The position numbers were made by a program, and so were the translations under genes. Under the pieces are notes generated by a model. It did no database searches. It saw nothing but the letters and a program-made list of their open reading frames with translations, and was not told the origin of the DNA. A stretch of DNA of 24,404 bases from a virus, in UHGV virus genome UHGV-0166778. One strand, written 5' to 3'. Shown here one piece after another: positions 1 through 24,246 of this stretch (the stretch's first letter is position 1; each line of letters begins with the position of its first letter).

Positions 1-1103
1 GGTACCTGATTTTCTCCTGTCCCCACATTCCTCTTTGCCGCTTCTCCCAAACCAAGGTATGTGAGAAGACCAGTTACATCCTTTCCACTCAAATTAGTCA
101 GCGTATTGTCCAGCGGTTGTTTACCTGCCAGTGCATTAAGCATTGTCGTGGCAAAGTTCGGGTCATTCCCCAGCGCCGCCGCCAGTTCGTTCAGTGTATC
201 CAGTGCCGCAGGTGCAGAACCCACCATTGCCGCAATCGCCGATTTCACAAATGCCGTGGTGGCAATTTGTGTATTGTTGACCGACTGTGCCGCAGTAGGT
301 GCGGTTGGCGTTCCGGTGAGTGCCGGACTCGACAACGGCGCTTTTAGTGCCAGCGCATTGTTAATGGTGGTACTGAATTTCGGATCATTGTTAATGGCTG
401 CGGCTATTTCTTTCAGCGTGTCCAGCGTGGCTGGCGCACCATTAATAAGAGCCGTCAGAGCCGCCTGAACAAACTCGGTGGTCGCAATCTGCGTGGTGTT
501 ATTCCCTGCTGCTGGCGTTGGCGCTTTGGGTGTCCCGGTAAACGTCGGACTTTCTTTGGGTGCATACTGTGAATGCGGGTCCGGTGCGGCAAGATGTTTT
601 GCCATCTGATCATCCGCGTACACCTTCAGCTCCAGTGCCTTGTCATCCACATACTTGCGGGTTGCCAGCACTACAGCAGGGTCGATTTTCAGGGTGATAT
701 TGTCCGTGCTGCTGGTAATCAGCACCATGCGCACGGTCTGAGTGCGCCCGCTACCTTCAGCCAGTTGCGGCTTATAGCTTTCCGGGCAGTTGCCCACGGC
801 AATCAATGCCCCGGACTCATCAAACAAGCCCACTTCACGTATCCACCAACCGCCCTCGTTTTCAGGGATCACCTGTTCGGCAATAATCTGACTGCTGTTC
901 TGCGGGTCGATATAGAGCATATTCAGCGCAGCCCGGCGTTTCTCATTTACCAGTGCAGTCTGCTTTGAGTCTGGCGTTGGCAATACTCCGCCGCCATCGC
1001 CGACCGCCATATGGGTAATTTTTAGCGGCACACCGAGCGCGGCGGCGCTGGCAAGTTTCGCCGCGCCAATATCCGTCAGCAGGGTATAAAATTTTGTGCT
1101 CAT
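1..1103 (-). CDS. H: Tail fiber protein (P2 gpH-like), partial; 3' end runs off the window
   Basis: Minus-strand frame open from ATG at 1103 to the window edge; translation begins MSTKFYTLLTDIGAAKLASAAALGVPLKITHMAVGDGGG, with repeated TQIATT.FV..A and ALDTL.E.AAA..NDP blocks typical of P2-family tail fibers. Start overlaps the gpI stop (ATGA). Confidence 0.8.
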   Translation of the reverse strand, partial: MSTKFYTLLTDIGAAKLASAAALGVPLKITHMAVGDGGGVLPTPDSKQTALVNEKRRAALNMLYIDPQNSSQIIAEQVIPENEGGWWIREVGLFDESGALIAVGNCPESYKPQLAEGSGRTQTVRMVLITSSTDNITLKIDPAVVLATRKYVDDKALELKVYADDQMAKHLAAPDPHSQYAPKESPTFTGTPKAPTPAAGNNTTQIATTEFVQAALTALINGAPATLDTLKEIAAAINNDPKFSTTINNALALKAPLSSPALTGTPTAPTAAQSVNNTQIATTAFVKSAIAAMVGSAPAALDTLNELAAALGNDPNFATTMLNALAGKQPLDNTLTNLSGKDVTGLLTYLGLGEAAKRNVGTGENQV

Positions 1104-1705
1104 GGATTCACTCTCATTGTGTCAATAACATGGACCGCCCCGCCTTCATGCGCGGTGCCGCCAGAAATAATTGTTTCGTTGATATACGGATAGATCGTGA
1201 TTTCTTCGCCAAGATAGCTGGCGGCCCCCACCCAATGCGGACCGCTGGTCTGCAGATTGATGGACATGCCGATCATGTGACGGCTACATGGTTTGGCATC
1301 GCTTATCAGCCGCTCAAGTTCCAGATAGGTATCTTCAGTGATGCCCTGGTCCTGCACGCCGATATCCAGGCGAAACGTGCCCGGTGTTTCTCCGGTCTGC
1401 CACCACTCAATAATGCGGATCAGGAATCCGAACGGTTCCACCACCCGCCGCACGGCACTGGTAGTTCCTTTATGCTGATGAATATAAAAAGCATCCTTCA
1501 CTACCTGGCGTTTGACGCTTTCTGTCCAGCCCTCGTCCCAGCGATCCACAGAGAACGCCCAGGCGAGATAAGGCAGGAAGCTGACCGGACAGGTAGCCGG
1601 ATTCCACAAGTCACGCAGCGGCACCTGCAGATCAGAAATCCCGCTACAGGTTTGCGCCAGTCGGCGCTCCAGTGAAGTTGAACCCGGTGGCAGCAGACTA
1701 TTCAT
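1100..1705 (-). CDS. I: Baseplate assembly / tail protein (P2 gpI-like)
   Basis: 201-aa ORF (MNSLLPPGSTSLERRLAQ...) in the position between J and H of the P2 late operon; start overlaps the J stop. Confidence 0.8.
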   Translation of the reverse strand: MNSLLPPGSTSLERRLAQTCSGISDLQVPLRDLWNPATCPVSFLPYLAWAFSVDRWDEGWTESVKRQVVKDAFYIHQHKGTTSAVRRVVEPFGFLIRIIEWWQTGETPGTFRLDIGVQDQGITEDTYLELERLISDAKPCSRHMIGMSINLQTSGPHWVGAASYLGEEITIYPYINETIISGGTAHEGGAVHVIDTMRVNP

Positions 1706-2606
1706 CCGTTCCTCCGTTGGTTACGCTCCACTGCGTACATGATGCCGCCTGTGTTTTGTTCAGGACCACATCCGCCAGCGGAGAAGCCAGTTCCACACGT
1801 TGAACACCCTCAACATGCAGAGCAGCAAAGATGGCGCTACGGCGAATATCCCGACCAAGCCTCGTCTGGCTGGCAATGTACTTCTGCAGACTGGCTTTTG
1901 CCGCTGCCATTACCGGCTCTGCTTCCGGTCCCGGATAGAGAAAAATGGTGGCTTCCACGCGATACGGGATGATTTCTGCGCTGCGAACCGTAAGACGGTC
2001 AGCCACCGGGCGGACGTTCTCACTGTTCAGAGCTTTTTCCACCACGTCCAGCAGGTCTTTTTCTGCAGTTCCATCGCCTTCGCGGCTAAGGACAGTCAGC
2101 ACCACCTCTGCAGGTGCCGGGCTGGTTGCACTGGCATCCGCCACCCGACCGTCGGCGCTTCGGGCATGAAATTCATAAGCTGCAGTTGGCCCCGCAACAG
2201 AAAGCCCTTCAAAGGCTGCAGGCACACGCAGGCGTAACGCTTCATCGCTTTCCATCACAGCTGCAACGGGCGGCACAGCATCATTATCAGCAGGCGTCAC
2301 CGTCAGGCGTGTCACGTTGTAGTTGGCAGCGAGCTGGTCAAGATCGCCGCCCATCGCGTAAGCCACCATCACCGCCTGCGCGGCTTCGTTAATGCGCTGG
2401 CGCAGAAGCAACTCACGGTAAGCGTTCTCCTGCAACAATTTAGTGACGGGTTCAGATTCCAGTTCCAGCGTGCGGATCACGACTTCCTGCTCATCTTTCG
2501 GATGAAGCGCCACAAATTCTGCCTTGCGTTCGGCAAGCAGCGTCTCAAAGTCCGGCACATCCACAATCTGCGGTGCAGGCAACTGCGAAAGGTCAATCAC
2601 TGCCAT
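1698..2606 (-). CDS. J: Baseplate assembly protein (P2 gpJ-like)
   Basis: ORF 1698..2645; likely true start is the internal MAVIDLSQLPAPQIVDVPDFETLLAERKA, resembling the gpJ N-terminus; short overlap with the W stop. Confidence 0.85.
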   Translation of the reverse strand: MAVIDLSQLPAPQIVDVPDFETLLAERKAEFVALHPKDEQEVVIRTLELESEPVTKLLQENAYRELLLRQRINEAAQAVMVAYAMGGDLDQLAANYNVTRLTVTPADNDAVPPVAAVMESDEALRLRVPAAFEGLSVAGPTAAYEFHARSADGRVADASATSPAPAEVVLTVLSREGDGTAEKDLLDVVEKALNSENVRPVADRLTVRSAEIIPYRVEATIFLYPGPEAEPVMAAAKASLQKYIASQTRLGRDIRRSAIFAALHVEGVQRVELASPLADVVLNKTQAASCTQWSVTNGGTDE

Positions 2607-2952
2607 TCTCTGCTCCTGTTGATACGGAAAGGGACACAGGCACACCGTTATTCCGCCGCCCGGTCAGCTCCACCACCATAGAACCGTCAAAGTTGCTGTT
2701 GATGGTAATGGAATCCAGCGTCAGCCGTGGCTCCCAGCGACTCAGCGCCACATACACTGCCGACATGACCTGCAGGCGTAATGCCGGATTTTGTGGCTGA
2801 TCTATTAAAACCGACAGGAGGGATCCATATTCCCGGCGGGCAATGCGGCTACCCTGCGGTGTCAGCAGAATGTCCCGCACCGACTGGCGCAGATGATCAA
2901 TATCAGTAATGACTTTGCCGCTGGTATTGTTCATCCCGCTATAAAGCGTCAT
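2593..2952 (-). CDS. W: Baseplate protein (P2 gpW-like, GPW/gp25 family)
   Basis: 119-aa ORF MTLYSGMNNTSGKVITDIDHLRQSVRDILLTPQGSRIARREYGS..., between V and J. Confidence 0.85.
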   Translation of the reverse strand: MTLYSGMNNTSGKVITDIDHLRQSVRDILLTPQGSRIARREYGSLLSVLIDQPQNPALRLQVMSAVYVALSRWEPRLTLDSITINSNFDGSMVVELTGRRNNGVPVSLSVSTGAENGSD

Positions 2953-3527
2953 ACCGGGCCTCCGGTTGTATCGCCGCCTTTCAGGACGCCAGTATGCTGA
3001 TGCGCATCAACCACAATCCCGTTAGAGCTCATCGCTCCGCCGCCCTGGGTAACGCCACCATTGATCACCACTTCGCTGTTAATACGCGTGCGGTCAGCCT
3101 CCAGCACAAACTCACTGGTTTTCAGGGTGATATTGTCAGCGGCCTCAATGACCATTGATTTGATGCCCCTAACATACCAGCGCCCGGTGGCGGGTTCGTA
3201 TTCAAACCAGCCGCCGTCCGGGTATTCCGTCACGTTGCCGTCCTCAGAGCCTGAAGGTGGCGGAAACTGGTTTGAGTAGACCGCAGGCAGGGCAAACGCG
3301 GTTTCCAGATTGCCGCCAAGGCTGAACAGCACAACCTGCTCACCCACAGACGGTTTCCACCAGGTGCGCGATTTGCCCGCGCGCAGTGTCAGCCAGTTAA
3401 TCCAGTTGGTTTCGAGGTCGCCAGTTTTCACCCGACACAGCCAGTTTGCCCTGTCCACTTCGGTGACTACACCTGTGCGGATCAGGTTGGTGATAAGGCG
3501 CATGATTTCGGTTAATTGTGCGTTCAT
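2949..3527 (-). CDS. V: Baseplate spike / tail protein (P2 gpV-like)
   Basis: 192-aa ORF MNAQLTEIMRLITNLIRTGVVTEVD...WWKPSVGEQVVLFSLGG...SSNGIVVDAHQHTG, close to the gpV pattern as recalled. Confidence 0.85.
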   Translation of the reverse strand: MNAQLTEIMRLITNLIRTGVVTEVDRANWLCRVKTGDLETNWINWLTLRAGKSRTWWKPSVGEQVVLFSLGGNLETAFALPAVYSNQFPPPSGSEDGNVTEYPDGGWFEYEPATGRWYVRGIKSMVIEAADNITLKTSEFVLEADRTRINSEVVINGGVTQGGGAMSSNGIVVDAHQHTGVLKGGDTTGGPV

Positions 3528-5905: not shown

Positions 5906-6432
5906 CAGATAAGCTCCACTGTGCAGTGCGGCGCATCCTGCACCCGGCTGATGGCCCAGCGGGCGTCACGCCACAAATCACCGCTTGCTTCCGCCAGTTC
6001 CTCGCCCCGCTTCACACCGGATGCCGTGGCGTCATAGTCCTGATAACGCTCGTTGAGCATGGCGCGTGCCCAGCAGTAAACCGCGTTGAAATAGTGATGA
6101 ATGCGCTCACTTTTGCCGTCCAGCTGTTCCGCCGGAACCTCTGCCAGCGAGGCATATCCCAGCATCTGCTGACGTCTGCGAAACTCATACAGCTCTGCGT
6201 TGACCTCCGAAATTGCCGACAGCGCAACCTGCTTTAAACGCGGCTGCGTCACCGTGCCGTCAGTGCGCATGACACAGCGAAACTCCGACAGGTCCACATC
6301 AGGCCAGAACGGCGTATTTCTGATGATTTCCGCCTGTTCCGGTGCCTGTTCTGGCGCAACAAACTTCATGCTGCTTTCTCCTGAAATAAAGGGCGGTGGA
6401 CGGGATTTTGATGTGGCAGTGCCTTTCGCCAC
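5905..6432 (-). CDS. L: Head completion / stabilisation protein (P2 gpL-like)
   Basis: 175-aa ORF; real start may be the internal MKFVAPEQ. Position between M and X. Confidence 0.8.
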   Translation of the reverse strand: MAKGTATSKSRPPPFISGESSMKFVAPEQAPEQAEIIRNTPFWPDVDLSEFRCVMRTDGTVTQPRLKQVALSAISEVNAELYEFRRRQQMLGYASLAEVPAEQLDGKSERIHHYFNAVYCWARAMLNERYQDYDATASGVKRGEELAEASGDLWRDARWAISRVQDAPHCTVELI

Positions 6433-6464
6433 CCCGTGCCGCCCGTGCGCGGGGGCACGTTCTG

Positions 6465-7115
6465 TCAGCGGCTGTCATTGCGCAGTCTGCGCTCCAGCTG
6501 CTGTTTGTCTTTTTTCACGCCACAGCGGGGATCGAGCTGTAACGCATGGTTGAGATGATTAAGGGCGGAAGCCGGATTGCTTTCACTCAGGACAGCGCCA
6601 ATCGCTTTATGCAGACGTGCCCGTGACTGGTCCGGCATATCCAGACCGTCTGTCAGCTCCAGCGTCTGCAGCAACAGATCAGCATCAAAGCCGGTGGCGG
6701 CAAGCATTGCGCTCTGCGCTGCGTCTGCCATTTCCTCTGCCAGCACGGTCTGCACGTTGCGGTTACCCAACGGCATCACCCAGCCATGACGCAGGGCGTG
6801 ACGCCCGATCTCCAGCGCCCCGGCATAATCTCCGGCATCAATGCGCCACAGCATCACGTACATCAGCACGTCATCCTGTTGCGCGCCTCCGCCAGCCAGG
6901 ACACCCTCTGCCCAGGCGGCGTATTTCGGCAGCAGTTCCACCTTGATTTCCGCTTTTTTGACCGTGGACTGAACGCCCTTGAGACGGCGGCGGTCTTCCG
7001 CCAGTTGCAGCAGCATCAGGTCATAGCCCGACGCGTGGCGAACACTGCCACCCTCGCGAGCGGCCTGTTCAGCCTGAACGCGCAGGCGATGCTGCCGTGC
7101 GGGACTCAGGCTCAT
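6465..7115 (-). CDS. M: Terminase endonuclease (small) subunit (P2 gpM-like)
   Basis: 216-aa ORF MSLSPARQHRLRVQAEQAAREGGSV..., immediately downstream of N. Confidence 0.85.
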   Translation of the reverse strand: MSLSPARQHRLRVQAEQAAREGGSVRHASGYDLMLLQLAEDRRRLKGVQSTVKKAEIKVELLPKYAAWAEGVLAGGGAQQDDVLMYVMLWRIDAGDYAGALEIGRHALRHGWVMPLGNRNVQTVLAEEMADAAQSAMLAATGFDADLLLQTLELTDGLDMPDQSRARLHKAIGAVLSESNPASALNHLNHALQLDPRCGVKKDKQQLERRLRNDSR

Positions 7116-9169: not shown

Positions 9170-10936
9170 ATGAACACCACACTGACACCCGCAGATCTCG
9201 ATCCCCGTCGGCAGGCCATGCTGCTGTACTTTCAGGGATACCGCGTAGCCCGCATTGCTGAAATGCTGGGCGAGAAAGTTGCAACCGTTCACAGCTGGAA
9301 AAAACGCGACAAGTGGGGTGACTATGGGCCGCTGGATCAGATGCAGCTCACCACCGCCGCACGCTACTGCCAGCTCATCATGAAGGAGCACAAAGAAGGG
9401 AAAGATTTCAAAGAGATTGACCTGCTGGCGCGCCAGTCTGAGCGCCACGCGCGGATCGGCAAGTTTAACAATGGCGGCAACGAAGCCGACTTAAACCCTA
9501 ACGTCGCCAACCGCAACAAAGGCCCGCGTCGTCAGCCGGAAAAGAACGTTTTCACTGATGAACAGATTGAGAAGCTGGAAGAAATCTTCCATTCCTCCAT
9601 GTTCAACTACCAGCGCCACTGGTGGGAAGCCGGAAAAACCAACCGCATCCGCAACCTGCTGAAGTCACGCCAGATCGGCGCGACCTTCTATTTTGCCCGT
9701 GAAGCCCTGATTGACGCCCTGCTTACCGGACGTAACCAGATTTTCCTTTCTGCCAGTAAGGCTCAGGCCCACGTCTTTAAACAATACATCATCGACTTCG
9801 CCAAAGAAGTCGAGGTGGAGCTAAAAGGCGATCCGATGGTGCTTCCTAACGGAGCCACGCTTTACTTCCTCGGCACCAATGCCCGCACGGCCCAGAGTTA
9901 TCACGGCAACCTGTATCTGGATGAATATTTCTGGATACCGAAATTCCAGGAGCTGCGCAAAGTGGCTTCCGGGATGGCTATTCACAAAAAATGGCGACAA
10001 ACCTATTTTTCCACGCCATCCAGCCTGACCCACAGTGCTTATCCGTTCTGGTCCGGTGCGCTGTTCAACCGTGGACGCAACAAAGCTGACAAGGTGGACA
10101 TCGACCTGTCCCACAGCAATCTGGCCCCCGGCCTGCTGTGCGCAGACGGGCAATACCGCCAGATAGTCACCGTGGAAGATGCGGTGCGCGGCGGCTGTAA
10201 CCTGTTCGACCTCGACCAGCTACGCATGGAGTACAGCCCGGACGAATACCAGAACCTGCTGATGTGCGAGTTCGTGGACGATCTCGCGTCCGTGTTCCCG
10301 CTCAGCGAACTGCAGGCGTGCATGGTGGACAGCTGGGAAGTCTGGACCGACTTTCATGCACTGGCCCTGCGCCCGTTTGGCTGGCGCGAAGTGTGGATCG
10401 GTTATGACCCGGCAAAAGGTACGCAGAACGGCGACAGTGCCGGATGCGTGGTGGTGGCTCCGCCAGCCGTGCCGGGTGGTAAGTTCCGCATTCTTGAGCG
10501 TCACCAGTGGCGCGGGATGGACTTCCGCGCCCAGGCTGACGCCATCAAAAAACTCACCGAACAGTACAACGTGACCTATATCGGTATCGACTCAACCGGC
10601 GTTGGTCACGGGGTTTATGAGAACGTGAAAGCATTCTTTCCTGCCGTCCGGGAGTTTGTCTACAACCCCAATGTTAAAAACGCCCTGGTACTCAAGGCCT
10701 ACGACATTATCAGCCACCGCCGTCTGGAGTTTGACGCCGGGCACATCGACATTGCGCAGTCATTCATGGCAATCCGTCGCGCCACCACCGCCAGCGGCAA
10801 CCGCCCGACCTATGAAGCCAGCCGCAGCGAAGAAGCCAGCCACGCCGATCTGGCCTGGGCAACGATGCACGCACTGTTTAACGAACCGCTGCAGGGCGAA
10901 TCCGCCAATACCAGCAATATTGTGGAGATTTTTTGA
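9170..10936 (+). CDS. P: Terminase ATPase (large) subunit (P2 gpP-like)
   Basis: 588-aa ORF MNTTLTPADLDPRRQAMLLYFQGYRVARIAEMLGEKVATVHSWKKRDKW..., P2 gpP-like in length and N-terminus. Confidence 0.9.
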   Translation: MNTTLTPADLDPRRQAMLLYFQGYRVARIAEMLGEKVATVHSWKKRDKWGDYGPLDQMQLTTAARYCQLIMKEHKEGKDFKEIDLLARQSERHARIGKFNNGGNEADLNPNVANRNKGPRRQPEKNVFTDEQIEKLEEIFHSSMFNYQRHWWEAGKTNRIRNLLKSRQIGATFYFAREALIDALLTGRNQIFLSASKAQAHVFKQYIIDFAKEVEVELKGDPMVLPNGATLYFLGTNARTAQSYHGNLYLDEYFWIPKFQELRKVASGMAIHKKWRQTYFSTPSSLTHSAYPFWSGALFNRGRNKADKVDIDLSHSNLAPGLLCADGQYRQIVTVEDAVRGGCNLFDLDQLRMEYSPDEYQNLLMCEFVDDLASVFPLSELQACMVDSWEVWTDFHALALRPFGWREVWIGYDPAKGTQNGDSAGCVVVAPPAVPGGKFRILERHQWRGMDFRAQADAIKKLTEQYNVTYIGIDSTGVGHGVYENVKAFFPAVREFVYNPNVKNALVLKAYDIISHRRLEFDAGHIDIAQSFMAIRRATTASGNRPTYEASRSEEASHADLAWATMHALFNEPLQGESANTSNIVEIF

Positions 10937-11964
10937 TGGGAAAGAGTAAGAAAAACCGCGCTGCGGCGACGAATCAGCTCAAGCATAAAAGCCAGACTTC
11001 AGCCGAAGCATTCAGCTTTGGCGATCCCGTTCCTGTTCTGGACCGCCGTGAACTGCTGGACTATGTGGAATGCGTACAGATGGACCGCTGGTATGAGCCG
11101 CCCGTCAGCTTTGACGGACTGGCACGAACCTTCCGCGCTGCCGTGCATCACAGCTCACCGATTGCAGTAAAATGCAACATTCTGACCAGTACCTACATCC
11201 CTCACCCGCAGCTCAGCCAGCAGGCTTTTTCACGTTTTGTGCAGGACTATCTGGTATTTGGTAACGCCTACCTGGAGAAACGCACGAACCGCTTCGGTGA
11301 AGTTATCGCCCTTGAGCCTGCTCTGGCAAAATACACCCGACGCGGGTTAGACCTGGATACCTACTGGTTTGTGCAATACGGTATGACAACCCAGCCGTAT
11401 CAGTTCACGAAAGGCAGCATTTTTCATCTGATGGAACCGGACATTAACCAGGAGATCTACGGCCTGCCCGGCTATCTTTCTGCCATTCCGTCCGCCCTGC
11501 TCAATGAGTCCGCCACGCTGTTCCGCCGCAAGTATTACATTAACGGTAGTCATGCAGGCTTCATCATGTACATGACCGATGCTGCGCAGAACCAGGAGGA
11601 CGTGAACAACCTCCGCAATGCAATGAAAAGTGCCAAAGGTCCGGGTAACTTCCGCAACCTGTTTATGTACTCGCCTAACGGCAAAAAGGACGGCCTTCAG
11701 ATCATCCCTTTGTCAGAAGTTGCGGCGAAGGATGAGTTTCTAAATATCAAGAACGTGAGCCGGGATGACATGATGGCAGCACATCGCGTTCCGCCACAGA
11801 TGATGGGGATTATGCCGAATAATGTTGGGGGGTTTGGGGATGTGGAGAAGGCTAGTAAAGTATTTGTTCGTAATGAGTTATTACCGTTGCAAAAAAGATT
11901 ACAGGAAATAAACATATGGCTAGATGAGGAAATAGTAACATTCGATAGTTATCAGCTTACTTGA
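10933..11964 (+). CDS. Q: Portal protein (P2 gpQ-like)
   Basis: 343-aa ORF overlapping the P stop (ATGA). Confidence 0.9.
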   Translation: MMGKSKKNRAAATNQLKHKSQTSAEAFSFGDPVPVLDRRELLDYVECVQMDRWYEPPVSFDGLARTFRAAVHHSSPIAVKCNILTSTYIPHPQLSQQAFSRFVQDYLVFGNAYLEKRTNRFGEVIALEPALAKYTRRGLDLDTYWFVQYGMTTQPYQFTKGSIFHLMEPDINQEIYGLPGYLSAIPSALLNESATLFRRKYYINGSHAGFIMYMTDAAQNQEDVNNLRNAMKSAKGPGNFRNLFMYSPNGKKDGLQIIPLSEVAAKDEFLNIKNVSRDDMMAAHRVPPQMMGIMPNNVGGFGDVEKASKVFVRNELLPLQKRLQEINIWLDEEIVTFDSYQLT

Positions 11965-11970
11965 AAAAAC

Positions 11971-11998
11971 GGAGTCAGATATTCTGACTCCTTATTTC
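11971..11998. terminator. Bidirectional rho-independent terminator between convergent Q and the TM-TIR gene
   Basis: Stem ggagtcag / ctgactcc with a 5-nt loop, flanked by an A-run on one side and a T-rich tract on the other. Confidence 0.5.
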
Positions 11999-12599
11999 AA
12001 CCAAGAATGGACTTCAATGACAAATTGAGCTTATCAATTAATTTTTCATCCTCATAGTTTACAGACTTGATGTTTTTGAGCATCGCAGGCAATTCAGCAT
12101 CACCAATTATCACAGGAATTATAGGAACATAGTTTTCATCTTTTACCGTAGCTTTACGGAGAAAGCCCTCTACCTCCTTTCTTATATATGACTCCATATC
12201 TTCATTAGACAGAAGCAATATAGCCGCAGCGCTATTGTCTATAGCCTGATTAATTTGCTTTTCAATAATCTGCCCGGGCAATATGTTATTTTCATCAAAC
12301 CATACATCAAAACCTAACTCATTAAGCTTACAAGTTATTTGACGGGCCTTATCTTTTTCTTGTACGGGATACATTAGAAATATTTGCTTTCCTTTTTTAA
12401 CGGCCTTTAGTCTTCTTTCCCTTAATTTCATTAACACAATCAAACTCAGGCCAGAATAGGCAAAAGATAATCCAATAACGGAGATGATAATCTCATCATT
12501 AACTCCTTGAAATAAATATGGGAGCCGTGGAATAAGAGCCATAAGAAACCCAACAACAGCCAATGCAATTGAAATAATATAAAGAGTATTTTTTTTCAT
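11997..12599 (-). CDS. Membrane-anchored TIR-like domain protein (two N-terminal TM helices plus C-terminal TIR-like fold)
   Basis: 200 aa. N-terminal hydrophobic helices (LYIISIALAVVGFLMALIP; IIISVIGLSFAYSGLSLIVLM), then IFLMYPVQEKDKARQITCKLNELGFDVWFDENNILPGQ...AIDNSAAAILLLSNEDMESYIRKEVEGF, which follows the TIR beta-A / alpha-A / beta-C pattern. AT-rich, unlike the flanking phage core. Confidence 0.6.
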   Translation of the reverse strand: MKKNTLYIISIALAVVGFLMALIPRLPYLFQGVNDEIIISVIGLSFAYSGLSLIVLMKLRERRLKAVKKGKQIFLMYPVQEKDKARQITCKLNELGFDVWFDENNILPGQIIEKQINQAIDNSAAAILLLSNEDMESYIRKEVEGFLRKATVKDENYVPIIPVIIGDAELPAMLKNIKSVNYEDEKLIDKLNLSLKSILG

Positions 12600-13016
12600 T
12601 TACACACCCTTAATCCACAAAACAAAGGAAGCAAAAAATAATATGCCGACTAAATTACACCCAATACATAAAACCCAAATTTGACCTTTTGGATTTCCTG
12701 TTCGCCCTTCCCAATCTTGATGAAAAGACATGATCCCCAGTAATACAAAAAGAGAGAAGGCAAGAAAGCTAGTAGTTCCAATGTACTGATTAACCACTTG
12801 GTTAACCGTGGTTACTGTTTGAACAGTTTTAGTCAAATCATATAAATTCAACAATGATGCACCAATTGTCGATAATATCAACTCATTCCCAAAGTAAAAA
12901 TCACTCTTTTGCCAACCAGAGGATCTGGCAAGTTTTTTTACAAAAGCCCCACATAGAATCATCAACAATGGAAAAATTAAAGCAACAACGTATTTATTAC
13001 CAATGACATCAATCAT
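12600..13016 (-). CDS. Small polytopic membrane protein, function unknown; first gene of an operon with the TM-TIR gene
   Basis: 138 aa with about four hydrophobic helices; its stop codon directly abuts the ATG of the TM-TIR gene; AT-rich. Confidence 0.55.
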   Translation of the reverse strand: MIDVIGNKYVVALIFPLLMILCGAFVKKLARSSGWQKSDFYFGNELILSTIGASLLNLYDLTKTVQTVTTVNQVVNQYIGTTSFLAFSLFVLLGIMSFHQDWEGRTGNPKGQIWVLCIGCNLVGILFFASFVLWIKGV

Positions 13017-13225: not shown

Positions 13226-13270
13226 TGCCCGCTTTATGTAGTAGTTTTCATGCAGGTGCATGATCTACGC

Positions 13271-13294
13271 AAAAGCCCGCCAGTTCTGGCGGGC
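13271..13294 (-). terminator. Rho-independent terminator downstream of the 13343..14185 gene
   Basis: Stem gcccgcc / ggcgggc with a short loop; on the minus strand it is followed by TTTT. Confidence 0.4.
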
Positions 13295-13342
13295 CTTAGC
13301 AAAAACGATCCTCAAACGATCATGCGATCTCATGCAGCATAG

Positions 13343-14185
13343 TCATGCACGATCATTTGACTCAGCATCTGCTGCACGCTTGCTGCGCGAAGATGCACTT
13401 TTACTACCAATCTTTCGACAGTTCTTTCTATCCCTGGCTTCATTTTCTTTAAATTTGTTATATGTCTCAGTATCAAAAAACGAAATTGTTTCAACCTCAT
13501 CTTTTGGTATGAGCACACGGAAATCTTCGATATTAAGCCGAGACATTCCACTTATCACACCACTATCAAGATAATGTTGGTGATAGTTAGTCGTGATACT
13601 AATCGTTAGATCATCTTTATCCCGATATCCGCTTAACATCGGGAGAAGTTCAAGGTGTTCTGAAAGCCCGTTTTCTAACGCCGGACAAGTAACAAGACCA
13701 ACATAGATTTTGCGAGACGACAGAGTTGCTATGATCGGAAACTGTCTTGCGGACGCTTCCATGAGTAATGATTCGAAAGCGTTATTACCCACAGCTTTAG
13801 CTAAGGCATCCCAGCGACGATCTCCACGTGATGTGCGTAACTTATTTCCAAAACCTGAAATCGCAGCGAGGACAATTGAAATCATAACCCATGCTATCTG
13901 TTTGATTTCATTTATTCTTTGAAGTTTGTCTTTCGATGAAGACAACATGCCGTTAAAACTGTCAGGTGTTAGATTCAAGGCATTAGCCAGCCAACGAAAC
14001 CCTCCGCTGACGTTCAAAATAAAGGTGAAAAAACCGCCAAGGAGAAAAAAAACGATACCCCAGGCAGCCACAAAAAAATAAGCGTCCCAGCCGTTGGAAC
14101 GCTTATATCGGTATCTTGTTGAAAGTGATAGGTTTACATAAATAAAACCACTAACCAAAATCACTGCTAAAAGTAATGTTGCCAT
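13343..14185 (-). CDS. Membrane-anchored protein of unknown function (N-terminal TM helices plus about 170-aa soluble domain)
   Basis: 280 aa with hydrophobic segments (LLLAVILVSGFIYV; YFFVAAWGIVFFLLGGFFTFIL; IAWVMISIVLAAISGF) and a charged Ser/Arg/Lys-rich C-terminus; AT-rich; start overlaps the stop of the upstream small gene (TAATG). Confidence 0.5.
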   Translation of the reverse strand: MATLLLAVILVSGFIYVNLSLSTRYRYKRSNGWDAYFFVAAWGIVFFLLGGFFTFILNVSGGFRWLANALNLTPDSFNGMLSSSKDKLQRINEIKQIAWVMISIVLAAISGFGNKLRTSRGDRRWDALAKAVGNNAFESLLMEASARQFPIIATLSSRKIYVGLVTCPALENGLSEHLELLPMLSGYRDKDDLTISITTNYHQHYLDSGVISGMSRLNIEDFRVLIPKDEVETISFFDTETYNKFKENEARDRKNCRKIGSKSASSRSKRAADAESNDRA

Positions 14186-14400
14186 TATCTGGTTCTATTA
14201 GTTTTCTCTTTTACAGTGCTCGTTTTGATGCCTTCAAGCTTATCCATCTGTGCCTTGATGGCATCCATTGCTCTTTTGTTAGACAAGTCTACGGACACAA
14301 AACCATCTTTACTAAGATTGAGTTTGTCCTGGTTCTCTTTAAGAACCCTTGCCAGACGTTCAACTGGGTTACCCAGGCTAAATGCGGCGATGCTTGACAT
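14185..14400 (-). CDS. Small hydrophilic protein of unknown function, translationally coupled to the downstream membrane protein
   Basis: 71-aa ORF MSSIAAFSLGNPVERLARVLKENQDKLNLSKDGF...; AT-rich cargo region. Confidence 0.45.
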   Translation of the reverse strand: MSSIAAFSLGNPVERLARVLKENQDKLNLSKDGFVSVDLSNKRAMDAIKAQMDKLEGIKTSTVKEKTNRTR

Positions 14401-14670
14401 AACTCCCCCTTTTCACATGGCGCGGAAGTCTACACTCCGACGCCTACAACCTCAACAGATTATCTTTAAAATTTAGACAACAATATCATCTGTTGATTTC
14501 GTTACTTAAACTTAAGTTCAATGCGCTCGATCATGCAAGCGGTTTCTTAAGAACTGTTAATTTCCTGGCATATATAGTGGTTAAGGTAACAAATTGACAC
14601 TAACGCCTCGCATAGCTCGTTGTTCAACCTTGCTGACGCCAGAAGCAAGTTCAGACGCCAGCAACGTTTC

Positions 14671-14904
14671 TTAATGCAGCCAGCTGTCGTCTTCCCACAC
14701 CTTCTGCATAATTTTCATTACTTGTTTCCTTTCTTCGTCCAGTTGCAGTCCGGTCAGTTCCACACCGTTAGAGCTACCTTTACGGATACGAATTACCGTT
14801 TTGGGATACAGGGGGCGCAGATTGCGGTAAAGCTCGGATTCAAAGGCGTCCAGGGTAGACTGGCTAATCTTCTGCTCTTTATCGATCATTATTTCAATGC
14901 GCAT
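14671..14904 (-). CDS. dinI: DinI-family protein
   Basis: Internal start MRIEIMIDKEQKISQSTLDAFESELYRNLRPLYPKTVIRIRKGSSNGVELTGL...VWEDDSWLH fits the DinI length and pattern (MRIE... N-terminus, acidic W-containing C-terminus); GAGGTG ribosome-binding site upstream. Confidence 0.75.
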   Translation of the reverse strand: MRIEIMIDKEQKISQSTLDAFESELYRNLRPLYPKTVIRIRKGSSNGVELTGLQLDEERKQVMKIMQKVWEDDSWLH

Positions 14905-14914
14905 AAAAGTCACC

Positions 14915-15103
14915 TCAACTGATGACATCCATTGAGCGGTTGTATTCGTGGGTTCTGATTTTTGCCATAAGTTCATCTGTCAGTTCAGAAACCCACTGCA
15001 AAGCCAGCCCCTTCTCTTCATCACTACACTCACTAGCCGCTACAAGCTTAAGAAAAAAATCAATGCGCTGGAGCTTCAAAGACTCCAAAAAATAGTCCTG
15101 CAT
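14915..15103 (-). CDS. Putative Tum-like antirepressor (small protein transcribed from the LexA-controlled promoter)
   Basis: 62-aa ORF with a GGAGGA ribosome-binding site, directly downstream of a LexA-box promoter and upstream of dinI; the position matches tum of phage 186. Confidence 0.4.
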   Translation of the reverse strand: MQDYFLESLKLQRIDFFLKLVAASECSDEEKGLALQWVSELTDELMAKIRTHEYNRSMDVIS

Positions 15104-15255: not shown

Positions 15256-17670
15256 TTAATACAGGTTTCGCCACTTATCATCTTCCTGCAAACGCTGGTT
15301 CCGATAGAAGATACGCAGGCCTGCTCCTGACGGAATACTGCCGCCGCGAAGCAGTAAATCGACCTCTTTCTCGCTGCCATCAAATCCCCTGGACTTCAGT
15401 TCATACACGAGCTGCTGTCGCTGATGATCTGTAATTCGCTGTTTGTAGTCTTTACGCCGTTTCGGTTTCACCAGGCGTAACCTTGCTGCCAGTTCCCGGC
15501 GCTCTTTTTTGCTCATACTGTGCAGGTAATCGTGCAACTCCTTGTCATCCATGCGGGTGATATCCGTTCTGGTATCTCCATCAGCTGATTTGTCTTTCCC
15601 TTGTTGGTACAAATTTTCAGCAAGGGGACAGTTATTGCCACGAGTCCAAGGGGCGCAAGCGCCCTGGTCGGCTGCCGCCTCCTGAACGTCAACGGCCTTA
15701 CGAACCATTTTCCACTTCACTGCATGAGTGCAGATCTTGCCCTCTGCAATGGGTGACCAGATGCCATAAATACGAATACCGTGATCGCCATAGGCGGTCG
15801 GCTCTTCGTTGATTTCATAAGCGGTTCTGATGAGGTGATATTTGCGGGGAACCAGTACGCCGCCCTGCTTCATGATGTAGGAGGCAAAACAACCAGCATC
15901 AGCAGCAGCCAGGATGGCATCAAGGCGCGGGTTATCCAGTACCGGCGCACCTGCTTTTTTGTCACCCTGTTGCCTTGCCGCCTGACCAGCCAGCAATCGC
16001 AGTTCACGGTAAGCCTGACGCCCCGGAATGCCAAAGAAGCGGAATTGCTGAACACGATGCAGAGACGCCCAGGCATTAACGTATTCAGCGTTATCACGCA
16101 GGGATTTACCCGTTTCCTTACTGATCTCGCCAGCCAGACCACGCCCGTCAATATTCTTACTGATATATTTCGCAATGTAGCTTGTCGGCGTTCCTTTGCG
16201 CGGGTTTATCAGCTCAGACTTAAAGCGTGGCCCCGTGTTATTGCCCAGCTCCTCGCGGTCTTCACGGATGGCAAACTTACGCAACAATGCAGTAATGGCG
16301 CGGCGGTCTTTTTTGCGCATGAAACACAACAGGTGCCAGTGAACTGTGCCGTCATGATGCGGCTCAGCCACCCGCACGCCATACCAGCGCAACCCGGCTT
16401 TGTGCATAGCCTTACGAAATGCAGCAAACATGCCGACCAGATAATCGCTGCTTTGTCTTACTGTCGCGTTGGTCCAGGTCGGGTTTGGCCTGCCGTTATT
16501 TAGCGTGGAATGGAAACGTGACGGACAGGTGATGGTGTAGAAAACGGCGCAGTCACCACGCATTTCCGCGATAAGCTCCAGGCCTTTAACACAGGCCATC
16601 ATCTCGTTGCGGCGATGCGCCGGGTTGCTGCTGCTGGCGTTTACCACATCCTCCATGTTCAGCGTGTCGCCGTCTTCGTTCACCAGTTCATGAGAACGGA
16701 AAAACTCCAGCGACTTACGGCGCTGCTCACGTTTATGCATCACGGCTTCATAGCTGACATAGGGAGATGCTTTTTTGCTGACCAGGCAGACAGCACGCAA
16801 CTGCTCTTCCCGCCATTCGCAACGCATCTTCCATAATTTCCGATACCACCAGTCGGCGCACAGCATACGCGCCAGCGAACCCGGAATGAGTTCATAAGGC
16901 ACAGGTTTGCGGCGGTTTCTTTTCCGGCGGAGTTGCTCAAACGCTGGCGGTATGACATCCAGTCGCAGGGTTTCTGCAGCCACCTTTTCCCATGTCTTGC
17001 GGATTTCTTCTGGCTTAACATCATCGGAGGCGTACAAATCACCACAAGCGGCATCAAGACACATGCTCATATGCGCAGCGACAAGGGTAGACAGGCGTTT
17101 CACCTGATCCTGACTCATTTCAGGCAGGATCATCAGACCGTCCAGCCCTTCATGGCTTGCCATAAAACGAAAAGATGCAGATAGCTGGCTGTCGCGTACA
17201 TGCTCCAGTCGTTCCAGACATGGCTTAATCGTCTCACGCAAATAGCGGGAATAAGCCTTTGGCCTGCCCAGGCTGCTGAAATATTCAATACGTTGCATCA
17301 GCGGCTTGCTGATATGGGAAGGCTGGGCGTTGACGTCAGTCAGAATGACCATGTCTGGATTAAAACGCTGCTGCTCATGCGCCATCTTTGCCCGGCTAAT
17401 GAGCTTATCCTGCTCCATTTCGCGTTGGACAGGATCACGGGATTCATTAAAGAAATAACGCTCCCAGACCTGATCACTCAGTGCCTCGCGGCGCAGTTGT
17501 TCCTGCTCGTTATCAGTAGCGTACAGAGTGATCAGGTTTGAAAGCGCAGAAACCGGCGCAACTTCCGCCGGGTCCAGATAAGGGTTAATGGCCTTTTTCG
17601 GGCTGTTCCATGAGAACGATGCGGCAGCTTCGTTAAAGCTGCAGCAGTTGTTCATATCGGCATGACTCAT
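15256..17670 (-). CDS. A: Replication initiation endonuclease (P2/186 gpA-like)
   Basis: 804-aa ORF in the conserved early-operon position; size and position match gpA. Confidence 0.85.
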
Positions 17671-22690: not shown

Positions 22691-23476
22691 ATGCTGTCTG
22701 AAATAGAAATCAATGATGAAATTCAGCGAGGCAACATTTTTGATCCATTAACGGTATTAAATGGAACATTTAAAGTTCAATCTGCAAGCATTGATCTCTC
22801 TGTAAAAACAATACATATACCAGACTGTCAAGACAATAAAAAAACACGTAACAACCATATCCTGATGCCAGGGGAAACTGTAATATTAGAGTTAAATGAA
22901 AAATTCCAACTTGCAAAAAATTTAGCTGGTGTAATATTCCCAAGAAACACACTATCAAAAAATGGAATTATCATGACGAATCCAGGGCATATTGACCCTG
23001 GATATAATGGCATAATTTCAATATATCTTGTAAATATGTCAAAAGAACCATTCTCATTGACACAAAATTCTGCAGTAGCCCGAATGTTATTATTTAAAAC
23101 AATAATACCGACTAAAGGTTACCAAGGAAAAATCGTAAATAAATTGGATGATGATCAACTTTCTAGAATGGGAAAGGATTTTGCAGGACTTGATAAACGA
23201 CTTCCGAAAGAAATCAATAAAATCATTGCGAAAAAAACTGGCTTTATAATTGCGATAGCAGCCTTAATGCTAACGTTGATAACCCTAGCAATTCCTTTCT
23301 TATTTCAAATAGTATCCAGTAATGTCAGTAGTACAAAAGATCTTGAATTAACAATAAAAGTTCAACAAAATGAAATAAATAGCCTAAAAAGCACCGTTGA
23401 ATTACTAAAAAATGCTAAATCAAACGAACCAAAGGTTGATGCTAAAGTAAGCACCCCAAAAGCTATACGGGAGTAA
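22691..23476 (+). CDS. dCTP deaminase (Dcd)/dUTPase-fold protein with a C-terminal TM helix and coiled-coil tail
   Basis: 261 aa. The N-terminal ~185 aa show Dcd-family landmarks (LNGTFKVQSASIDLSV; PGETVILELNEKFQL; GIIMTNPGHIDPGYNGIISIYLVN); followed by a TM segment (FIIAIAALMLTLITLAIPFLF) and a Lys/Glu-rich coiled coil. AT-rich; ThyX start codon 2 nt after its stop. Confidence 0.7.
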   Translation: MLSEIEINDEIQRGNIFDPLTVLNGTFKVQSASIDLSVKTIHIPDCQDNKKTRNNHILMPGETVILELNEKFQLAKNLAGVIFPRNTLSKNGIIMTNPGHIDPGYNGIISIYLVNMSKEPFSLTQNSAVARMLLFKTIIPTKGYQGKIVNKLDDDQLSRMGKDFAGLDKRLPKEINKIIAKKTGFIIAIAALMLTLITLAIPFLFQIVSSNVSSTKDLELTIKVQQNEINSLKSTVELLKNAKSNEPKVDAKVSTPKAIRE

Positions 23477-23478
23477 AA

Positions 23479-24246
23479 ATGATAAAAATCTCTGATTTAT
23501 CAGTAAAATGCATATCACACCCTTCATTTGAAAGTAATGTTTTTGATGATTTTTTAAACACATCATCATTGCAATGGGTTCGCAAAGGGCAGGCGACCGA
23601 AGCTGAGCTTCTGGTAGAGGCCGCTGGCAGGCTATGTTATATGTCTTTTGGAGAGGATAAGCAGTCTCCACGGACTACAAGTCAATATATCAACAATTTA
23701 ATTATTCAAGGGCATGAAAGTGTCTTAGAACATTTGAACTGGACCTTTTTAATTACTGGGGTATCTCGTGCATTTACACACCAGCTAGTTCGGCATAGAG
23801 CTGGTTTTTCATATAGCCAGTTATCCCAACAGTATCATGATGAATCCGATGCTGAATTCGTAGCCCCTATAGAAGTAAAAAATGACCCAGAATTGTTTAA
23901 GTCATGGTGCCAACATATTGAAAGTAGTCTGGATTTTTATAAGCAATCCTTGAAAAAAATCCGTGAAAACCAATCGTATGAGAACAAAAAAGAAAAAATG
24001 CGGGCCCTAAGAAGCGCTTCTCGCTCTATATTGCCTAATGCAACCGAGACAAAAATAATCGTCACAGCAAATGCTCGCGCAATTCGACACTTCTTCGAAA
24101 TGAGAGGAGCAATACAGGGTGACTATGAAATGAGAACAGTTTCAGAAAAACTTTACGATATTGTAACTCAAGATGCCCCTGCCTTGTTCCAAGATTTCGA
24201 AAAAGTCAATGGAGGAACGGCGCACGTTAAGATAATAAAACAATAA
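23479..24246 (+). CDS. thyX: Flavin-dependent thymidylate synthase (ThyX family)
   Basis: 255 aa with the ThyX signature region GHESVLEHLNWTFLITGVSRAFTHQLVRHRAGFSYSQLSQQY (RHR-x7-8-S motif) and C-terminal ETKIIVTANARAIRHFFEMR; strong GGGAG ribosome-binding site. Confidence 0.85.
   Translation: MIKISDLSVKCISHPSFESNVFDDFLNTSSLQWVRKGQATEAELLVEAAGRLCYMSFGEDKQSPRTTSQYINNLIIQGHESVLEHLNWTFLITGVSRAFTHQLVRHRAGFSYSQLSQQYHDESDAEFVAPIEVKNDPELFKSWCQHIESSLDFYKQSLKKIRENQSYENKKEKMRALRSASRSILPNATETKIIVTANARAIRHFFEMRGAIQGDYEMRTVSEKLYDIVTQDAPALFQDFEKVNGGTAHVKIIKQ

Follow-up and report, generated by a model that had tools for sequence, protein, structure and literature searches.

What do the two genes encode that occupy, in this prophage, the cos-proximal slot where phage P2 carries old and tin, and could they act against other phages? 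The original prediction had read them as a defence or exclusion moron and recognised neither protein. We analysed the whole stretch of DNA in which they lie (24,404 nt of the virus genome UHGV-0166778, hereafter the window). The element is a P2/186-like E. coli prophage that carries genes for a CI repressor, CII, integrase, Dam, replication endonuclease A, DinI, portal Q and terminase P. E. coli O157:H16 98-3133 is 100% identical across the cassette; both genes are annotated there as 'hypothetical protein', and RefSeq likewise labels both as hypothetical proteins. The cassette sits between A/DinI on one side and portal Q on the other, which is the old/tin position of P2, as had been proposed. 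The cassette and its surroundings contain the following features.

15256..17670: replication gene A, flanking the cassette
14671..14976: DinI, flanking the cassette (Pfam E 3.7e-22)
14401..14670, minus strand: intergenic region of 270 nt downstream of DinI, candidate promoter region
14403..14412, minus strand: Shine-Dalgarno sequence of the small gene (AAGGGGGAG), read from the sequence
14185..14400, minus strand: small gene, 71 aa (ORF; phrog_9843, E 1e-36)
13343..14185, minus strand: large gene, 280 aa (ORF; phrog_3630, E 3.3e-99)
13268..13298, minus strand: terminator-like hairpin AAGGCCCGCCAG-AACU-CUGGCGGGCUU, then UUGCG (RNA fold)
11997-13016, minus strand: separate cos-proximal cassette encoding a 138-aa multi-TM protein (phrog_25392) and a 200-aa TM-TIR protein (TIR_2, Pfam E 3.6e-17)
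10933..11964: portal gene Q, flanking the cassette

The AT-rich two-gene operon described in the original prediction was exact in coordinates, lengths and strand. The pair has a GC content of 41.2% versus 51.7% for the remaining prophage, and the stop of the small gene and the start of the large gene have one base in common (…CAGATAATGGCA…, TAATG). Upstream of the small gene is a strong Shine-Dalgarno sequence (AAGGGGGAG); the large gene is without one. Because the large gene lacks its own Shine-Dalgarno sequence and starts inside TAATG, its translation is probably coupled to that of the small gene. Some 45 nt past the stop of the large gene there is a G+C-rich hairpin of 11 bp, with UUUUG after it. 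RNA folding of 13255-13345 (minus strand) gave -37.3 kcal/mol (z -3.9), and none of 200 shuffled sequences was equally stable; a simple terminator scan missed the hairpin because its T-run is short. This terminator-like hairpin ends the two-gene unit and sets it apart from the TM+TIR cassette. The cassette promoter should lie within 14401..14670, where a consensus scan returned no convincing minus-strand sigma-70 promoter. A search of the whole window against Rfam gave zero matches.

Compared with three orthologues (from a Klebsiella phage, Serratia sp. L9 and E. coli MB06173; a fourth, from Serratia inhibens, was saturated), the large gene had a dN/dS of 0.04-0.05 and the small gene one of 0.18-0.22. 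Judged by these comparisons, both ORFs are real genes under purifying selection. In comparisons with the loci L002, L005 and L092, the small gene had a dS of about 0.46, roughly fourfold below the value of about 2 for the large gene next to it in the same genome pairs. The difference points to either a recombination breakpoint within the cassette or an extra constraint on the DNA of the small gene.

Our analyses place the large protein in the inner membrane and predict that it has three transmembrane (TM) helices and a cytoplasmic Sm-fold domain, followed by a basic, variable C-terminal tail. The original prediction of a small hydrophilic protein and a partner with about three N-terminal TM helices was borne out by Kyte-Doolittle hydropathy, which gave three TM segments in the large protein (centred near residues 12, 48 and 103) versus none in the small one. 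The AlphaFold2 (AF2) model of the large protein (pLDDT 76) agrees, with long helices at residues 2-29, 33-60 and 87-119; beyond these it has a helical linker, a helix and then five or six strands. Two regions of the large gene were delimited in this way.

13829..14185, minus strand: membrane part, residues 1-119 (hydropathy, charge counts, AF2 helices and region-wise conservation)
13445..13783, minus strand: cytoplasmic Sm/LSm-like domain, about residues 135-247 (motifs SRKxYVG and LSGYRDKDxLT)

The membrane part runs from TM1 through a conserved, K/R-rich cytoplasmic loop (RYRYKRSNGW) to TM2, a variable periplasmic loop and TM3. We infer an N-out/C-in topology because the TM1-TM2 loop and the stretch after TM3 are both K/R-rich (positive-inside rule). 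In a region-wise comparison, conservation was highest in the Sm core (SRKxYVG, LSGYRDKDxLT) and the first cytoplasmic loop, and lowest in the periplasmic loop, TM3 and the basic C-terminal tail. The conserved residues are K159, Y161, G163, S185, G186, R188, D189 and D191. The poor conservation of TM3 does not favour a precisely built channel.

The assignment of the C-terminal domain comes from structure comparison. The best 50 Foldseek matches of the large protein were only Sm/LSm or Sm-like chains, or complexes containing them, with target TM-scores of up to 0.74. The modelled domain has the layout of the Sm fold: an alpha-helix at the N-terminus and, after it, an antiparallel beta-sheet of five strands with a strong bend. 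It differs from Sm, LSm and Hfq in the helices inserted between beta4 and beta5 in the AF2 model and in its fusion to three TM helices, an arrangement that we found in no PDB entry. The Sm1/Sm2 motifs gave no match in the large protein with the Pfam LSM or Hfq profiles even at E<=1, and sequence searches of the PDB with the family profiles of both proteins returned zero matches. The earlier description of a soluble domain of unrecognised family still holds for Pfam, NCBIfam and PADLOC, none of which matched it, and needs amending at the level of fold, now specified as Sm/LSm-like. A WYL-type Sm-like sensor domain, considered for the resemblance of YVG and GYRD, was rejected: the strand order differs, Pfam WYL did not match and no WYL structure was found.

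In MscS-type channels, which form rings, three TM helices also come before an Sm-like beta domain in the cytoplasm, and this order of parts resembles that of the large protein. The MscS/MS_channel domain (TM3 plus beta domain) gave no profile or fold match to the large protein, and none of the Foldseek matches was full-length. Because there is no full-length match and MscS is absent from the matches, three TM helices joined to an Sm-like domain have no solved precedent.

The 71-aa protein is hydrophilic (pI 9.9) and is predicted to fold as a helix, a beta-hairpin and a second helix. Its conserved portion is the C-terminal hairpin and helix (…KDGFVSVDLSN…AIKAQMDKL…). All that the small partners have in common is this C-terminal hairpin, h-x-h-x-x-x-G-x-h-x-h-[DN], and the amphipathic helix after it. 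Remote homology and structure prediction, which gave the large protein its Sm-like fold, were less informative here; the fold search with the small protein returned no significant match, and neither a DNA-binding nor a known antitoxin fold was found in it. The name 'multidrug ABC transporter ATPase', under which the 71-aa protein appears in NCBI and UniRef, is a propagated mis-annotation that no profile supports.

We then delimited the family. A word-indexed search returned 57 clusters of the large protein, and an HMM scan built from their alignment returned 2,887 clusters at 50% identity (E<=1e-3), with 2,022 at E<=1e-10. Among the matches listed, most proteins are 240-290 aa long, and a few are shorter fragments or domain-only proteins. 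Neither protein had a significant match in Pfam, NCBIfam or PADLOC; in PADLOC-DB v2.0.0 (5,027 models) the large protein gave only a 9.8-bit noise match and the small protein none. PHROGs matched both only to families without assigned function, phrog_3630 and phrog_9843. Clear homology to a housekeeping or structural phage function was found in none of these four collections, and a literature search by accession, sequence or PHROG identifiers returned no paper on the family.

Scanning one genome per species by motif yielded 84 loci, from Enterobacterales, Vibrionales, Shewanella, Pasteurellaceae, Neisseria, Psychrobacter, Pseudomonas, Xanthomonas and Acidobacteria. Each of the 84 has an ORF of 47-100 aa immediately before the large gene. 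The spacing between the two genes is mostly -13 to +35 nt, and TAATG and ATGA overlaps are frequent. An HMM of the small protein matched solely at this upstream position and nowhere else in the flanks of +/-8 kb; it missed four loci, where a recognisable partner was seen by inspection. No third conserved gene accompanies the pair beyond clade-specific synteny. Across these genomes, the two genes behave as an obligate two-gene module.

Such a module could be a toxin-antitoxin or addiction system with no dedicated anti-phage role, in which the small protein would neutralise a toxic membrane protein and the carrier prophage or islet would be stabilised. The small-first order, the one-base overlap and the large gene without a Shine-Dalgarno sequence resemble antitoxin-toxin operons, the obligate pairing and the coupled bicistronic arrangement are kept in the 84 loci, and the pair has spread on mobile elements and low-GC islets. 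The large gene is disrupted beside an intact small gene at seven loci, and the reverse was seen at none, as an addiction module might show. However, this 7:0 asymmetry is what the gene lengths lead one to expect and is not significant. The small protein has no recognisable DNA-binding or known antitoxin fold; overall, our results neither favour nor disfavour the antitoxin-like role that the original prediction considered for it. We consider a pure addiction module unlikely.

To learn how the pair is distributed, we surveyed genomes and virus contigs. It occurs in 52 of 5,426 complete E. coli genomes, and 50 of these copies are >=99.5% identical. Its GC content is below that of the flanks in 78 of 79 loci, with a mean deficit of 8.5 points. 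In IMG/VR, 58 of 80 loci adjoin gpA and/or portal Q of P2-like phages, and both flanks were detected in 50. The pair is the sole cargo in about 20 IMG/VR P2-like contigs, where it ends about 300-500 nt from Q, and in Salmonella phage SEN5, where it abuts the portal gene. These gpA-gpQ copies extend to distant P2-like phages whose A protein is only 31-39% identical. Across related prophages, the A-to-cos interval has the cassette present in some and absent in others, and the contents of the adjacent slot vary. Between gene A and the cassette, at 14671-15103 on the minus strand, the hotspot has a fixed inner edge: a DinI-like gene and a 62-aa ORF (phrog_698), both conserved in the E. coli P2-like prophages that we examined.

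Other phages carry the pair elsewhere. In Cronobacter phage phiES15 its place is between int and attP, and in Pseudoalteromonas phage C5a and a Shewanella P2-like prophage it adjoins the immunity repressor. At least a dozen siphoviral contigs, from several lineages, have it inserted between the major-tail/chaperone genes and the tape-measure gene.

About 6001-6840 in the IMG/VR siphoviral contigs L146, L147, L157, L159-L168, L170 and L171: the pair, at the tail-assembly-chaperone/tape-measure site

In L161, an extra minus-strand ORF (phrog_3983) follows the pair. The archetypal moron, HK97 gene 15, occupies the same site, and its product is an inner-membrane superinfection-exclusion protein (PMC3594210). 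Two properties expected of a moron were observed: a deviant composition (41.2% versus 51.7% GC) and presence or absence among related phages at cargo sites, here of four types. There are also chromosomal copies, which form low-GC two-gene islets among metabolic genes with varying right-hand neighbours, for example in the Pseudomonas fluorescens group. The pair thus moves as one unit between phage moron sites and chromosomal islets.

This distribution bears on two further explanations. A membrane protein encoded in phage genomes, at times inside the tail operon, might serve the carrier phage's own cycle, in lysis timing, as a holin/antiholin-like pair or in DNA exit or entry. But only a small share of close P2-like prophages carry the pair, as estimated from the 52 of 5,426 complete genomes, and a lysis-gene block appears elsewhere in the window (from ORF layout only). 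The pair also has the composition of foreign DNA, occupies cargo positions of unrelated phage types and is found in chromosomes with no phage genes nearby, and we regard a role in the carrier's own cycle as highly improbable.

The chromosomal copies point in another direction. Stand-alone copies between housekeeping genes in Pseudomonas, Shewanella and others, and a family that is large and phylogenetically wide, would suit a lysogenic-conversion or physiological membrane function unrelated to phages, such as an ion or solute channel, an envelope-stress factor or colicin/toxin immunity, carried as host-beneficial cargo. The three TM helices with an Sm-like beta domain, which recall the MscS core layout, count in the same direction, as does the fact that morons often carry non-defence fitness factors (PMC3594210). 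A physiological role of this kind seems to us unlikely.

The neighbourhood of the pair offers a further line of evidence. Experiments have established the P2 A-Q interval as a defence hotspot, and the same gpA-gpQ slot beside cos holds P2 old/tin, DUF4238, 3HP, DprA+PRTase and the AC1 2TM+1TM+TIR system (PMC9122126). The proteins of P2 old/tin and of the validated P2-hotspot systems are unrelated to the pair, which is listed for this hotspot only as 'hypothetical + hypothetical'. Other E. coli P2-like prophages encode a DUF4062 protein, a 557-aa hypothetical protein, a retron St85 RT or a P-loop NTPase between the pair and the portal gene. Table S5A of Rousset et al. lists WP_000094764 with WP_000212611 or WP_021556032 beside SieB, PIN_12 or DUF262/DUF1524. 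Around non-P2 loci, known defence genes (MADS, PARIS AriA, SoFic, PD-T4-5 and MTases) make up about 6% of 149 neighbours, an enrichment that is mild at best.

In the window, the neighbouring cassette encodes the 200-aa TIR protein, which has two N-terminal TM helices before TIR_2 and whose nearest PADLOC models are SAVED-TIR and PDC-S66. This TM+TIR cassette is present in three of the 5,426 complete E. coli genomes, and it stands alongside the pair in only three of the 52 genomes that carry the latter. The pair is independent of it. In Klebsiella phage ST15-OXA48phi14.1 (locus L002, 4353-5992), the pair is followed by a unit of a 69-aa and a 477-aa TIR protein, so a TIR protein again adjoins the pair, although its sequence is unrelated to that of the window's TIR cassette.

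Just past the integrase, the window has a further low-GC region (22691-24246, plus strand, 31-38% GC), which encodes a dCTP-deaminase/dUTPase-like protein of 261 aa and ThyX (Thy1), a flavin-dependent thymidylate synthase of 255 aa. These genes could be nucleotide-metabolism cargo or a nucleotide-depletion type of defence.

The large gene had been flagged computationally before. A 100%-identical copy has the RefSeq accession WP_000212611.1, which Table S5 of DefensePredictor lists as a 'Predicted novel defense gene', with a mean log-odds of 5.10 (sd 0.86, range 3.9-6.2; cutoff 4) and with no HHblits or Foldseek defence homologue (PMC13092281). The validation rate of these predictions is about 45% overall and lower near log-odds 5 (PMC13092281). 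WP_000212611.1 is absent from the units cloned or validated in that study (DS-1 to DS-45, Tables S6-S8), and none of the window's four cargo proteins is among the systems cloned by Rousset et al. (Table S2). Two apparent identities were rejected. The AC1 system of Rousset et al. (2TM+1TM+TIR, in pFD240) could have been the pair with or without the TIR cassette; its TIR (MKIFISWSGQDS…) differs, and Table S2 does not contain the window's cargo sequences. DS-35 (RED5), also of 280 aa and 843 nt, is an unrelated PD-(D/E)XK protein/nuclease. The characterised superinfection-exclusion (Sie) proteins HK97 gp15/YebO and SieB showed no homology to the pair by Pfam, annotated PHROGs or NCBIfam, and have position alone in common with it.

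We interpret the pair as a prophage-expressed anti-phage module, for defence or superinfection exclusion, composed of a ring-forming effector and a small cytoplasmic regulator, and we give this reading an even chance of being right. We read it in this way because the pairing is obligate, with the small partner upstream at every locus of the survey; because the cassette is mobile and accessory, being rare in E. coli, low in GC and equipped with its own terminator; because it recurs at phage moron sites and beside varied known defence genes; and because the DefensePredictor score is joined by a three-TM/Sm structure whose cytoplasmic parts are the most conserved. Against it stand the lack of a PADLOC match, the absence from the cloned systems of both Rousset et al. 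and DefensePredictor, the many Pseudomonas copies among metabolic genes, the low share of defence neighbours in non-P2 loci, the promoter scan with no convincing match, the limited validation rate of DefensePredictor predictions and the poorly conserved TM3. For the original proposal of a defence or exclusion moron, this means that the moron is well described by presence and absence, low GC, the terminator, the four moron sites, the defence neighbours and the DefensePredictor listing, and that the defence function itself is our interpretation of these data.

Under the anti-phage reading, the cytoplasmic domain would assemble into a hexameric or heptameric ring, as other Sm domains do, and so bring together a bundle of 18-21 TM helices. 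Translational coupling would supply the small protein in at least equal amounts, and it may sit on the conserved cytoplasmic face, formed by the Sm domain and the RYRYKR loop, as an inhibitor or a sensor. Upon infection, the complex would switch state. It might then permeabilise or depolarise the membrane, an abortive, Rex-like outcome, or block genome entry at the inner membrane, as HK97 gp15 and P22 SieA do. The regulated-effector (abortive) version is slightly favoured over the entry block, because the conserved surfaces and the partner are cytoplasmic and the periplasmic loop is free to vary.

Known systems offer partial parallels. The RexA/RexB proteins of lambda are a two-gene, prophage-borne abortive-infection system of a cytoplasmic sensor and a membrane channel and, like the pair, combine one soluble with one polytopic membrane protein. 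By this analogy, we favour a functional model in which the soluble partner would control the membrane effector. RexB has four TM helices and no Sm domain, and RexA has 279 aa as compared with 50-90 aa in the pair's partner; we know of no homology between the two systems. Pairs of a membrane toxin and a small antitoxin, such as CptA(YgfX)-CptB(SdhE), also join a small soluble protein to an inner-membrane protein through tightly coupled genes and, to our knowledge, are not homologous to the pair either. HK97 gp15 and P22 SieA are, like the large protein, inner-membrane products of prophage morons for which expression in the lysogen is expected. They have no sequence or fold similarity to it, and they act singly, having neither a conserved cytoplasmic domain nor an obligate soluble partner, whereas the conserved surfaces of the large protein are cytoplasmic.

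A bolder version of the anti-phage reading would make the pair a membrane immune effector of a new class. Here, an Sm ring at the inner face of the membrane would sense a signal from nucleic acid or a small protein, such as the arrival of phage DNA or RNA or the loss of the small guard protein, and would open or plug the assembly of 18-21 helices. We regard this version as distinctly unlikely; if true, it would be the first Sm-fold sensor directly joined to a membrane effector, and one found across Proteobacteria and Acidobacteria.

Prophage hotspots are a main source of new bacterial immune systems, and the pair is among the recurrent 'hypothetical + hypothetical' entries of the P2 hotspot. 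It is now a discrete, obligate family of about 2,900 clusters. The flag as a candidate defence gene in DefensePredictor was already on record; new here are a predicted architecture without precedent (three TM helices joined to a cytoplasmic Sm fold, with a conserved mini-partner) and the occurrence at four independent moron sites, including that of HK97 gp15. An anonymous machine-learning prediction has thereby become a concrete target in which the conserved residues are defined. Should the pair prove active, it would represent a new effector type in membrane-based phage defence or exclusion and a new bacterial role for the Sm fold.
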